Notes under the pieces: model-generated
What the model was told of the DNA's origin: nothing
What the model saw: the letters and a program-made list of their open reading frames with translations, nothing else
The model's database searches: none
Source of the DNA: Malacoraja senta
Taxonomy: Eukaryota
Reading direction: 5' to 3'
Length of the DNA stretch: 64,000 nucleotides
Assembly: GCA_038087875.1 (NCBI GenBank)
Contig: CM075993.1
Location: 8,062,001-8,126,000, forward strand
Made by a program: the position numbers and the translations under genes
Shown here: piece after piece, positions 1-61,717 of the stretch
Numbering within the stretch: position 1 is the stretch's first letter
Layout: each line of letters begins with the position of its first letter

Positions 1-558
1 AGTAATACAATTCTCTATATCTGTCATGCAAAGCAAACAGCATGTTTAGAACAAAAGCAGCATAATTTCAACAAAAACTAAAATGAGATTACCTTCAAAT
101 AATTTGGAACAGCTTTAGATGTTTCTGTCATTAAAATACAAATGTTCCCCAAAATAGAGCCCTTTTATTAACACACAAGCCTTTGGTATTTGTGCTTTGA
201 AATATCTTTTCAACTGCTGCTCTGCTAAACTGAGATCCAAGCAAACAATGAAACGATGATTGTCAGAGTTAAAACAGCCCCAGAAAGCATAAATCAGGCT
301 GAGTGAAAGATTTCAGTTTGAAGAAGGGACCCAACGCGAAACATCACTAATCCACGTTCTCCAGGGATGCTGCCTGACCCGCTGAGTTACTCCAGCACTT
401 TTGACCTTTCTTTTGCAAACAAGAATCTGCCGTTCCTAGTTTCTAAGTACCTCTGTTTACCTTTAAGAAAGTTTGTGTCTTTTTTTAAAAGCATAGATCA
501 GGAGTTTGTCTGGCATTCGGCAATATAGGGAGAACACTATCAATTTGAGAATGAATAA

Positions 559-23935: not shown

Positions 23936-24062
23936 GGGGTGGGAGATTGCAACCTTCACTGTTTCGACGAATGCAATCAACCCGGCGTGCACAATCAAGT
24001 AAGATCAAATAGAACAAGTTGTCCTACAACTTTAGGCTGTGCACGCCATACACAAGAAGAAG
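23936..24062 (+). mobile_element. Short (AAG)n-tailed retroposon with HDV-like ribozyme head, 11-nt internal deletion
   Basis: 11-bp TSD AACTCTGGGCT (23925-23935, 24063-24073); homologous to 60985-61125. Confidence 0.88.
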
Positions 24063-24294
24063 AACTCTGGGCTTTGTCCAACCATCTGCCGTAACCCATC
24101 AAAAAACCCTCCTTACCTGCCTCTTACCTGCCAGGCTTTGTCCTGCCCCATCTCATTTCCTGCTGTCTTCACCCTTCCCCCCTAAAATCAGTGAAGAAGG
24201 ACCCTGACTCGAAACGTCGCCTATATTTGTTCTCCAGATGCTGCTTGATCCGCTGAGTTACTCCAGCAATCTTTGTCTTTATTTTGGAGGCATA

Positions 24295-57015: not shown

Positions 57016-58258
57016 TTGTCGAGCCTTTGGGCGGGCGTCTCAGCCCCGCGACACCTCGAGAAAGCCTCCGCCGCGCGGCACAGTCACGGATGACACGTTC
57101 TTGATAGCGTGCACCACCAGACTCAGGAATAGATCCTCCCCCTCTGCCTGATAACATGGTCTTCCCATAAGCTCGGGCACTGTCTGATTCACCATTGCAG
57201 ACATTGGACTTTGTCTGAGGTACTGATGCACCACAATGCTGGGGACTATGCTCTGCATCTTCCTCTTGGCTCTCTCTATTGTACTTGAGTTTGACCTGAT
57301 TGTGCATGGCATGTCTGATCTGTTTGGATAGCAGGCAGAACAAGTACATGTGACAACAATAAACCAAAACCCTCAGTTGCATCTCAGTGTGAAGACAACG
57401 CCAACTCATCCCAAGCAAGAAAGAAACCTCAGCCATCGGGCTACATGTGTGGGGGGAACCGGACAGTTGCCATTTTGGGAGAAGACCCATCATCCAGACC
57501 CGAGACATCACCCGTCCTTTTTCTCCAGAGATGCTGCCCGACCCGCTGAGTTACTCCAGCACTTTGTGTCTATCTTCGGCATTAACCAGCATCTGCAGTT
57601 CCTTTCTACACACCCGATCTAAAAGCCTCCTGAATGCCATCACATCTGCCTCCACCACTACCCCTGGCAGACCAGTGGAGGCAGATAGGACAGTCTTGTA
57701 CCCCCATTTAATTTCCTGTTCCTCGGCTGACACTGACTGCCAGGCAACGGTCTGGAACGTTGCAGAGTGTAGATTTAGTTAGAATAACAGAGGGCGAGGA
57801 AGTGAAACTGGTTCACCTTCCTGTAGCCTGAAGCCATAAGTAGTGCTCTCGAAGGATGTTAGAACTAATTACACGCTTATGAAATTAGAAACATAGAGAC
57901 ATAGAAAATAGGTGCAGGAATACGCCATTCGGCCCTTCAAGCCAGCACAATATGGTCATGGCTGATCATCCAAATTCAGTAGCCTGTTCTGTCTTTTTCC
58001 CCCATATCCCTTGATTCCCTTAGTCCAAGGAGCTAAATCTAAGCTCTTGCCGATTTTTTCGGCGACTGCCGGCGTCATATCAGGGTCGCCAAAAGATTTT
58101 GAACATTTCGAAATCCAGGCCCTTAAGTGGGACAGGCCCTTTTACTCTCTCTTGAAAACTAGGTCAATGTTAGTACTAAGCAATCAGGATAGCAAACAGT
58201 CTGACCATCAGCCTATTTAACTACCACCTCCAAATAAGCTCCAAACTACAGAGACTTA

Positions 58259-59885: not shown

Positions 59886-60984
59886 GTGGACAGGTGATGG
59901 TTGGTCAGTGTGGACTCGGTGGGCCGAAGGGCCTGTTCCAACGCTGTATATCTAAACTAAACCGTGCCAATCTCTGTTGAGCAATGCAAGAAAACAAGGA
60001 ACTCTCCTCGATTCTACGCTACTCTCTTGTAACTCATGACAGCTGGTACAATTATTCACTACATGGAAGGTCGGGATTGTTACATCCAAAGTTTCTTGGC
60101 ATGGGATACTCCACGGATGAGTAATTCAAAGATTGCAGGAATGTTTTTTGTTACTTAAAATAATTCCTGTCAATTCAATGAAGAACCAATGTTTATTCAT
60201 GTACTTCCATGTCAACTCAATCCATCCATCCAATTCAAACAGAACGAGTCAATTGCAGAGGCAATTAAAATGAGAAAAATAGCAAGTAGGATTGAAAGTG
60301 CCTTGATAAAAATTATTAAGGTCGTTTGAAATGGGAAAAATGGGCTGAGAATTGTTCTGTAGATAAGTTCCTTTTTCATGGGGTTCTTCATGATATTGTG
60401 CATTGGAGTCGGAGTCGTACGGTACAAAAACAAGCCATTCGGCCCGTCTAGTCTACACTAACCATTAAACCACCCATTTAAACTAATCCTATACTCATAC
60501 CAATTTTTCTCTTTATATTCCAATCAACTCCCATTGATTCCTTTGACACGCCAGAAACAATTTATAATTACCAATTATCCTGCAAGTCTTTAGGATGTGG
60601 GAGAAGACAATAGACAATAGGTGCAAGAGTAGGCCATTCAGCCCTTTGAGCCAGCACCGCCATTCAATATGATCATGGCTGATCATCCCCAATCAGTACC
60701 CCGTTCCTGCCTTCTCGCCATATCCCCCTGACTCCGCTATCTTTAAGAGCCCGATCTAGCTCTCTCTTGAAAGCATCCAGAGAATTGGTCTCCACTGCCT
60801 TCTGAGGCAGAGAATTCCACAGATTAACAACTCTCTAGGTGAAAAAGTTTTTCTTTATCTCCGTTCTAAATGACTTACCCCTTATTCTTGAACTGTGGCC
60901 CCTGGTTCTGGACTCCCCCAACATCGGGAACATGTTTCCTGCCTCTAGCGTGTCCAAGCCCTTAATAATCTTATATGTTTCAAT

Positions 60985-61125
60985 CTTCTTCTTCTTGCGT
61001 ATGGCGTGCACAGCCTAAAGTTGTAGGACAACTTGTTCTACTTGATCTTATTTAATTGTGCACACCGGGTTGATTGCATTCGTCGAAACAGGGTGGACCA
61101 CGTGAAGGTTGCAATCTCCCACCCC
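60985..61125 (-). mobile_element. Short (AAG)n-tailed retroposon with intact HDV-like ribozyme head
   Basis: 11-bp TSD TATGTTTCAAT (60974-60984, 61127-61137); tail GCACGCCATACGC(AAG)n. Confidence 0.92.
61072..61125 (-). ncRNA. Minimal HDV/CPEB3-like self-cleaving ribozyme (54 nt, predicted)
   Basis: GGGGUGG GA GAUUGCA ACC UUCACGU GGU CCACCCU GU UUCGA CGAA UGCAAUC = P1, J1/2, P2, P3, L3, P3', P1', J1.1/4, mini-P4, J4/2, P2'. Confidence 0.88.
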
Positions 61126-61717
61126 TTATGTTTCAATAAGATTCCCTCTCATCCTTCTAAATTCCAGAGTATACAAGCCCAGCCACTCCATTCTATCAAT
61201 ATATGACAGTCCTGTCATCCCAGGAATTAACCTTGTGACTGTACGCTGCACTCCCTCAATAGCAAGAATGTCCTTCCTCAAATTTGAAGACCAAAACTTG
61301 CAGCACATGTAGGAAACCCACATGGAAGCTGCACGTGGACCCAGCACTGGAAGTTAGGATAGATGTGGGCTGAATGGCCTCGTTAGTTTAGTTTAGTTTA
61401 GAGGTACAACATGGAAGCGGGCACTTCAGCCCACAGAGTCCATGACGACCAGCGATGATCACCCATATACCAATTCCATTGCATACACTAGGGACAATTT
61501 ACAGCAGGCAATTAACCTACCCGGAGAAAACCCATGGAGCAAACATACAAACTGTGGAGACAGCCCCTATAATCAGGATTGAACCGGGGTCTCTATAAAC
61601 CATTTTCCCCCTTGCACTTCCGTCACGCCCCATTGATTCTCGTGCCGCCTCTCTTGTTCGTCAAGGTGTGGTTACCAGTAGAGTATTTCATTCCCTGGCT
61701 CTCTCCTTTTCACAACA

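Follow-up and report, generated by a model that had tools for sequence, protein, structure and literature searches.

The 64,000-nucleotide (nt) stretch of Malacoraja senta DNA analyzed here (contig CM075993.1, positions 8,062,001 to 8,126,000; "the window," numbered from its first letter) carries on its minus strand a 141-nt retroposon headed by a predicted self-cleaving ribozyme of the hepatitis delta virus (HDV) type. The element and its junctions are laid out as follows:

61125..60985, minus strand: retroposon of 141 nt, starting GGGGTGG and ending (AAG)4
61127..61137, minus strand: upstream copy of the target site duplication (TSD), 11 bp, ATTGAAACATA, from the sequence and from empty-site joints in the paralogous host repeat
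61126, minus strand: extra A at the 5′ junction, between the TSD and the first base of the element (G1), from a skip of 153 = 141 + 11 + 1 bases
60985..60996, minus strand: (AAG)4 tail, also carried by copies L064 and L065 of a long interspersed nuclear element (LINE) described below
60974..60984, minus strand: downstream copy of the TSD, ATTGAAACATA, from the sequence

An earlier annotation made from the letters of the window alone (the first-pass annotation) had described a 141-bp retroposon with an (AAG)n tail and an 11-bp TSD and without tRNA-like A/B boxes. This description holds in each part: the tail occupies 60996-60985, the TSD is present on both sides, empty-site joints mark the insertion, and ARAGORN finds no tRNA. 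Paralogous, uninterrupted contigs of the host repeat join across the element; the joint omits 153 bases and leaves 11 letters that could belong to either side, as predicted for an insertion of 141 + 1 bases with an 11-bp TSD. The host (60950-60984 and 61126-61160) is another repeat, which is extremely abundant; its summed contig depth in the sequencing runs compared exceeds that of the element itself.

The short element forms a large, young, dispersed, non-coding family whose copies begin uniformly at G1. In the genome assembly (1.94 Gb, 6,182 contigs), a 21-nt word from the ribozyme core (GATTGCAACCTTCAYRTGGTC) has 6,127 exact matches compared with 0 for the reversed control, and a 21-mer from the 3′ part of the main subfamily has 3,251. 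A DNA search returned 441 candidates, 40 of which were scored; these show 96-100% identity, with 35 beginning at nt 1 and 27 spanning nt 1-141. The ranking behind these 40 favors full-length copies, and the pattern counts were used as the unbiased view. Flanks at the 5′ end were counted by eye in the first 100 of 4,833 matches in genome order: 88 copies reach nt 1, 7 differ at nt 1 alone, and 5 are truncated at nt 4-7. Among those reaching nt 1, 72 start exactly GGGGTGG[G/A]A and 16 do so imperfectly (ten with one internal mismatch, one with two, and five with an indel in the G run). Viewed from the other end, an exact 5′ core lies at the expected distance in 17 of 24 3′-end matches (contig C1 below 10 Mb); 5′ truncation is therefore rare, and copies are nearly always full length. 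Exact TSDs of at least 6 bp were found at 22 of 30 loci, and most of the other eight carry imperfect ones by eye; TSD sizes in the family are 8-12 bp. Copies are dispersed on many contigs, and words nearly identical to parts of the element are present in public sequencing runs labeled with eight different organisms. The 5′ ends are not ragged, in agreement with the 5′-end uniformity for which the first-pass annotation had proposed a check.

At locus L008, a copy that covers nt 1-84 and then passes into unrelated sequence was considered as a LINE 5′ end and rejected, as it is a local duplication of flank and element. The duplicated segment (L008:1558-1700 and 2279-2418) measures ∼141 bp and comprises 57 nt of flank and the first 84 nt of the copy. 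The duplicates are 90% and 97% identical to the query, and the break at nt 84 falls at a 10-nt internal repeat.

The 54-nt fold at the 5′ end

The first 54 nt of the element were parsed into three helices (P1 to P3) and their connecting segments:

61072..61125, minus strand: HDV/CPEB3-like fold of 54 nt lacking helix P4, from the descriptor, sub-threshold matches to RF02682 and RF00622, and covariation with LINE family 2 (see below)
61119-61125, minus strand: P1 5′ strand GGGGUGG (nt 1-7), pairing with CCACCCU, G1·U36 included
61117-61118, minus strand: J1/2, GA
61110-61116, minus strand: P2 5′ strand GAUUGCA (nt 10-16), pairing with UGCAAUC
61107-61109, minus strand: P3 5′ strand ACC (nt 17-19), pairing with GGU
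61100-61106, minus strand: L3, UUCACGU
61097-61099, minus strand: P3 3′ strand GGU (nt 27-29)
61090-61096, minus strand: P1 3′ strand CCACCCU (nt 30-36)
61088-61089, minus strand: J1/4, GU
61083-61087, minus strand: 5-nt linker UUCGA replacing P4
61079-61082, minus strand: J4/2, CGAA
61072-61078, minus strand: P2 3′ strand UGCAAUC (nt 48-54)
61082, minus strand: putative catalytic C44, first base of J4/2, matching the cytosine in the GCGAAU stretch of Rfam's CPEB3 consensus

This is the nested double pseudoknot proposed in the first-pass annotation, whose parse proved letter-perfect and was recovered by a descriptor script. The structure-only descriptor specified a 7-bp P1, a 6- to 8-bp P2, a 3-bp P3, a 7-nt L3, a P4 region of 3-60 nt, and a C in J4/2, with G·U pairs allowed. 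To these, core letters were added, namely G1 at the cleavage site, a C (for P1.1) and a G in L3, a G in J1/4, and the catalytic C followed by N-A-A in J4/2; published accounts give HDV-like ribozymes five or six invariant nucleotides. The descriptor matched at 61125 with no mismatch, and it also matched the ribozyme-like 5′ end of a second LINE family (family 2, below). The core letters are complete in the family of the present element and its parent LINE (family 1): G1, C22, G25, G37, and C44-G-A-A. With the core letters included, the target was the only match in the real window, and 30 dinucleotide shuffles yielded 0. The fold also starts at the very base that the TSD and flank divergence define as the first of the element, when structure-only matches arise at a rate of ∼2e-5 per position (2.7 per ∼127,000). 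The other two structure-only matches in the window, at 57682 and 14756 (both minus strand), are without the core letters and are of the kind expected at the chance rate.

When the 63-nt stretch was searched against 4,227 Rfam families, the top two matches were both of HDV type. RF02682 (HDV-F-prausnitzii) aligned end to end on 61125-61072 (model positions 1-74) with 15.9 bits and an E-value of 0.24 (threshold, 44 bits), and RF00622 (CPEB3) scored 12.7 bits with an E-value of 0.27 (threshold, 35 bits); these models leave the P2 pseudoknot unscored and penalize an absent P4. A search of 321 nt at E-values up to 10 returned nothing relevant, the HDV-type matches appearing only with the 63-nt query. 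When folding was restricted to nested pairs, the minimum-energy structure of the 54-mer consisted of P1 and P3. Position 32 is G in most copies and A in the window copy, so U5 pairs in both cases. The core letters, the first-base position, and the comparison with known models lift the fold above chance.

Two LINE families

The partner of the short element was sought through its 3′ end, by searching for its last 24 nt preceded by letters foreign to the short element. This pattern had 365 matches in the genome and 0 for the reversed control. Among 100 matches listed, 45 formed one class that shares with the element just the last ∼33 nt and the tail. One of these loci, L064, proved to be a LINE 3′ end: it contains an open reading frame (ORF) with reverse transcriptase (RT) motifs and a C-terminal Cys-His motif. 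The UAG stop of this ORF, equivalent to nt 109-111 in the short element, is followed by an 18-nt untranslated region (UTR) and an (AAG)n tail, such that nt 99-141 of the element match the last codons, the UTR, and the tail of L064. A second locus, L065, connects the RT region with the same 3′ end. At the other end, nt 9-70 of the element have a counterpart of 95% identity in L066:983-1044, which continues uninterrupted into an endonuclease ORF. The 5′ part (L066) and the 3′ parts (L064 and L065) were joined via overlapping ORF similarity. By these alignments, the element is the first ∼88 nt of a LINE joined to its last ∼33 nt and (AAG)n tail, internally deleted and non-coding:

61038..61117, minus strand: segment stemming from the 5′ end of the LINE (nt 9 to ∼88), from the L066 alignment, weaker beyond nt 70
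60997..61027, minus strand: segment stemming from the 3′ end of the LINE (nt 99-129), comprising the last codons, the UAG stop at 61015-61017, and the 18-nt 3′ UTR, from the L064 alignment
61038..61079, minus strand: relic frame of 13 codons (MQSTRCAQLNKIK), from the AUG at nt 47-49, which is the LINE ORF start, to a UAG at nt 86-88

Thus a LINE sharing both ends with the element, for which the first-pass annotation had suggested a search, is present in the genome, its 5′ end in L066 and its 3′ end and tail in L064 and L065. The LINE ORF opens at an AUG inside J4/2-P2 (nt 47-49) and runs into the endonuclease domain (...LRIYQLNVAGMS... ∼150 nt from the start). In the short element, the same AUG (61079-61077, spanning J4/2 and P2) begins the sole frame present, which closes at the UAG at 61040-61038. 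Other short subfamilies fuse the first ∼90 nt of the LINE directly to its last ∼24 nt.

The parent LINE measures ∼3.3 kb, with a single ORF of ∼1,000 amino acids (aa) that holds endonuclease and RT domains, leaves no room for ribonuclease H (RNase H), and ends in a C-x-C-x9-H-x4-C motif. Its copies are 65-90% identical to one another at the protein level and predate the short copies. An intact 1,019-aa ORF, 73% identical, lies on a 3,344-nt contig from another source (P0121) and possibly belongs to an active relative. Hundreds of further relatives with ∼1,000-aa endonuclease and RT proteins were found on contigs of ∼3.2-3.4 kb, and the named ones are mostly from arthropods. On the single ORF and the lack of RNase H, a Vingi-like parent appears to fit best, and an RTE-like one is possible. 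The C-terminal Cys-His motif, which RTE elements are not known to carry, would also point to the Vingi-like assignment.

At L065:2678-2761, the 5′-truncated LINE copy abuts an inverted piece of the short element (nt 5-70, minus strand) followed by nt 9-26 on the plus strand. This palindromic 5′ junction looks like the product of a template switch or of twin priming. The best matches to RVT_1 were also tried as partners and rejected: all 30 loci belong to a young L1-like family with poly(A) tails, a 1,271-aa ORF, and no similarity to the element. Copies of this family (L031-L063, e.g., L061:3124-7086) are 97-99% alike and carry endonuclease, RT, and zf-RVT domains and poly(A); the family dominates the 159,857 RVT_1 candidates of the genome.

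Family 2 has 43-47% RT protein identity to family 1 and is better preserved, with open frames of up to 886 aa. The family-2 copy at L068 is 5′-truncated in a microsatellite, and 5′ ends were taken from other copies. These begin with P1 GGGGGGC/GCCCCCC, P2 GGAUCA/UGAUCC, and P3 GCG/CGC, connected by a J1/2 of three A/U letters, L3 UUCUCGU, J1/4 GU, and J4/2 CCAA, and they include a P4 of 6 bp (CCCAGG-CUCG-CCUGGG). The two families thus have the same architecture, with equal segment lengths as far as nt 38 and different helix sequences, and all three helices still pair. On the Rfam models, family 2 scored 37.0 bits for RF00094 (HDV; threshold, 50 bits) and 30.9 bits for RF00622 over the full model (threshold, 35 bits; E-value, 6e-7), and these were the only Rfam families that its ribozymes matched.

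Covariation was assessed in a MAFFT alignment of three family-1 and four family-2 sequences, with P2 compared by hand across the P4 indel. Across both families, P1 and P3 are 98.6% paired, compared with 49-61% when the partners are slid. Compensatory changes affect 4 of the 10 P1 and P3 pairs and 4 of the 6 shared P2 pairs. The first-pass annotation had named conserved pairing in P1, P2, and P3 as a test of its fold, and the pairing is kept through sequence change in this diverged family.

The family-2 core has 48 matches in the genome, all of which were listed. In 36, the P1 5′ strand stands at the very start of the copy (26 of the GGGGGAC type and 10 of the perfectly pairing GGGGGGC type); the remaining 12 are truncated or rearranged. 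Three GGGGGAC copies were cross-checked, and all are LINE copies; all seven GGGGGGC copies cross-checked are bipartite non-autonomous derivatives of family 2 itself. Perfectly pairing P1 is thus found in the derivatives, unlike in the LINE copies checked. The derivative (L071-L073, e.g., L073:101-560) joins ∼260 nt of the 5′ end to ∼240 nt of the 3′ end, ending ...GCTAAATAAA. In a DNA search with family 2, 27 of 40 scored matches end at query nt 135-148. Copies of family 2 are often preceded by a repeated part of their initial 20-45 nt or by extra bases (L070:40-75, L071:40-90, and L072:13-72), a heterogeneity that recalls template jumping at the RNA 5′ end.

Two further features were recorded in the window, which contains 400 N in its 64 kb:

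23936..24064, plus strand: another copy of the family, missing 11 nt of the ribozyme (nt 24-34) and flanked by its own TSD, AACTCTGGGCT
61018..61034, minus strand: 7-bp hairpin AAGUUGU-CCU-ACAACUU (nt 92-108), its 3′ arm LINE-derived and its 5′ arm specific to the short element

In addition, GTGCAC occurs in both the 5′-derived part (61056-61065, nt 60-69) and the 3′-derived part (61003-61012, nt 114-123) of the element. The minimum-energy fold pairs nt 60-69 with nt 114-123 in a 10-bp helix that would join the region after the ribozyme to the 3′ UTR (fold z-score, -0.93, not significant).

Proposed mechanism and rival explanations

Bipartite in make-up, sharing both ends and its tail with a LINE, flanked by TSDs, sharp at its 5′ end, and headed by a fold conserved in two LINE families, the 141-nt element is probably a bipartite non-autonomous LINE with a P4-less HDV-type ribozyme at its 5′ end, derived from a compact single-ORF LINE. 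The first-pass annotation had anticipated a ribozyme-headed, non-autonomous family served by a LINE, in keeping with the dispersed copies, the uniform start at G1, and the LINE with both ends in the same genome.

We propose that the element would be carried in longer host or read-through transcripts, because no promoter of its own was identified in it. The predicted ribozyme would fold co-transcriptionally and cut just 5′ of G1, trimming its own front end; a cut at this position is suggested by the fold, its placement, and the uniform DNA 5′ ends. Cleavage would remove the upstream host sequence and leave the same 5′ end on every RNA. Given the ends shared with the LINE, its endonuclease/RT protein may recognize the common 3′ end and tail and mobilize the element in trans, with the RNA copied into a new nick by target-primed reverse transcription to give TSDs of 8-12 bp. 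As the AUG of the LINE lies inside J4/2-P2, its cleaved, uncapped RNA would be translated from within the ribozyme fold. Translation of this kind is reported for R2-type elements (PMC8256844).

Several observations weigh against this interpretation. The structure-only descriptor found 3 sites on both strands of the window, compared with an average of 2.7 (from 0 to 7) across 30 dinucleotide shuffles. All Rfam scores given above, for family 1 (15.9 against 44 bits and 12.7 against 35) and for family 2 (37.0 against 50 and 30.9 against 35), fall below the gathering thresholds, and no Rfam family matched at the gathering level anywhere in the window. Nested-only folding energies are unremarkable (z-scores of +0.59 for 54 nt and -0.93 for 129 nt), and they are uninformative here because the fold is a pseudoknot. 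Family 1 has only the linker UUCGA where P4 would stand, and its P1.1 would consist of one G-C pair plus U·U, as weak as in CPEB3. In family 2, 26 of the 48 copies have an A·C mismatch at position 6 of P1. The covariation involves just two lineages and therefore amounts to one comparison rather than many. Among the LINE copies, the sole family-1 5′ end fetched (L066) is without nt 1-7, and all family-1 copies seen are broken, with a longest open frame of 681 aa; therefore no present driver of the young short copies was found in the genome.

The chance rate of the structure-only descriptor (3 versus 2.7 per window) and the non-significant folding z-scores are what would be seen if the ribozyme-like pairing were an accidental resemblance without a role. 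We give this next to no credence: the fold starts at the exact first base defined by the TSD, the core-letter descriptor has 0 matches in 30 shuffles, and the diverged family 2 shows the same architecture in the same place, with compensatory changes and significant Rfam E-values. It is also very improbable that the element is an ordinary short interspersed element (SINE) transcribed by RNA polymerase III (Pol III), with a head that resembles a ribozyme by accident. Such a SINE would likewise be short, high in copy number, and sharp at its 5′ end; the element has no internal run of four or more T, and by eye, nt 5-15 and nt 37-47 only loosely resemble the box A and box B consensus. Classical SINEs carry a head derived from tRNA, 7SL, 5S, or small nuclear RNA with an internal Pol III promoter. 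In this element, ARAGORN detects no tRNA-like gene, no small-RNA family of Rfam matches the window or the 321-nt query, and the head instead comes from a protein-coding LINE, whose 5′ end it is and whose start codon it includes.

The main rival holds that cleavage has been lost in the P4-less family and that the fold persists as a relic of a ribozyme or as a structural signal serving translation start, 5′ protection, or the binding of a protein, the 5′ end being set by an internal promoter in the first ∼50-80 nt. The missing P4 and weak P1.1 of family 1, the mismatch in most family-2 copies, and the sub-threshold Rfam scores would all suit a relic. A precedent for the promoter exists in the Pr77 region of L1Tc and NARTc, which acts at the DNA level; the first 77 nt of L1Tc are both promoter and ribozyme (PMC3383444, PMC3185411, and PMC8256844). 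This dual role shows equally that promoter and ribozyme are compatible rather than mutually exclusive, so that the rival may coexist with the proposed ribozyme. Against loss of cleavage, the catalytic core letters are all kept in both families, all three helices are preserved through sequence change, and P1 pairs perfectly in the non-autonomous derivatives of family 2 (10 of 48 copies; L072 and L075-L078). P4-less members of the HDV-like class are known in addition (preprint 10.1101/2023.06.13.544163), so the missing P4 is no bar to membership. On balance, we regard the relic or promoter alternative as unlikely, and a cleaving ribozyme at the head of a bipartite LINE as the reading that the data favor.

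Known systems and significance

LINEs headed by HDV-type ribozymes, together with internally deleted derivatives of them, are a known kind. Bipartite non-autonomous LINEs have been described and named as such, with the 5′ ribozyme proposed as the reason for keeping the LINE 5′ end (Kojima 2018, PMC5786205). Examples (PMC5786205; Eickbush and Eickbush 2012, PMC3414825) are NARTc (from L1Tc of Trypanosoma cruzi), RIME (from ingi), and the R2 SIDEs of Drosophila, along with derivatives of Vingi-1_EE and the RTE derivatives WALLSI3 and MAR4. These share with the present element the 5′ and 3′ ends of the parent alone, no coding capacity, and presumed trans-mobilization; NARTc and the R2 SIDEs also keep the 5′ HDV-like ribozyme of their parent. 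The present family has the extreme 5′ end, the extreme 3′ end with its tail, no ORF, and dispersed copies with TSDs. It differs from these bipartite LINEs in being far smaller (141 nt), in having at least ∼6,000 copies in 1.94 Gb that are dispersed rather than specific to ribosomal DNA, and in a predicted ribozyme that lacks P4 and contains the start codon of the parent.

The ribozyme-bearing LINE clades listed in PMC5786205 are R2, RTE, L1Tc/Ingi, LOA/Baggins, R1, and R4. Their HDV-like ribozymes agree with the present one in forming a nested double pseudoknot that opens the element, with the cleavage site at the first base, and in the presumed role in release from a co-transcript; unlike them, family 1 lacks P4. 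If the parent is a Vingi element, it would lie outside the six clades of that list, and no link between Vingi and a ribozyme of its own was found in the literature searched.

Minimal HDV-like ribozymes without P4 are known, reportedly from Riccitelli 2014 and from a preprint (10.1101/2023.06.13.544163). They include drz-Mtgn and the theta ribozymes of gut phages, which are likewise ∼50-nt double pseudoknots with a short linker for P4. Those come from metagenomes and phages and lie beside tRNAs, whereas the present one heads a eukaryotic retroposon and comes from a LINE lineage whose sister family keeps P4. The family stands apart from the known systems in its small size, with 54 of its 141 nt taken up by the predicted ribozyme, and in its copy number. 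It is also a eukaryotic mobile element that has lost P4 beside a P4-bearing sister, its ribozyme holds the start codon, and the sister-family ribozyme is close to that of mammalian CPEB3. No description of such a family was found in the literature searched; Repbase and Dfam lie outside that scope, and an earlier description is possible.

The likeness of L3 UUCACGU and CGAA to the CPEB3 ribozyme, which the first-pass annotation had pointed out, is borne out by the Rfam CPEB3 consensus (RF00622). Family 1 and this consensus share UUCACGU, CCCUGU, and CGAAU, have identical segment lengths as far as nt 38, and are alike in the letters of P1.1 (one G-C plus U·U). Family 2 has GCG/CGC in P3 and GUCAG at the start of P4, as CPEB3 does, and 33 of 45 aligned letters are identical. 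Unlike the CPEB3 ribozyme, the present ones score below its 35-bit threshold, lie outside the CPEB3 intron, and are multicopy and mobile, and that of family 1 lacks P4. In CPEB3, the catalytic residue is C57 in a 4-nt J4/2, and the P1.1 region is flexible (PMC4836649). A tentative and rather doubtful extension of these comparisons is that the mammalian CPEB3 ribozyme may be the exapted 5′ end of a LINE of the present lineage (Vingi-like, with a single ORF and a ribozyme head), inserted in the CPEB3 intron in an early mammal, with family 2 as a living representative of the source. The idea is prompted by the near-threshold, full-length matches to the Rfam CPEB3 model, which share primary sequence beyond the invariant core, by the identical L3 in family 1, and by remnants of Vingi that the human genome retains (X12_LINE; PMC5753468). 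If it were true, the CPEB3 ribozyme would be no de novo invention, and family 1 would show how far such a ribozyme can be pared. The sequence likeness makes this origin testable.

The family offers a natural and very abundant eukaryotic ribozyme, predicted to be of HDV type and P4-less at 54 nt, with a P4-bearing sister as internal control; the pair is a ready system for asking what P4 contributes. Because the ORF of the LINE opens within the predicted ribozyme, the family is also relevant to the translation of LINE RNAs that a ribozyme has processed and left uncapped. Tools for RNA-only gene insertion are under development from compact LINEs that have one ORF and short modules at both ends (PMC13708176), and a natural template module of 88 + 33 nt may be of practical interest there. 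For the biology of these elements, the data support Kojima's idea that a 5′ ribozyme lets internally deleted LINEs persist as minimal parasites: 141 nt, made up of a predicted ribozyme and a 3′ signal, would suffice for thousands of copies.

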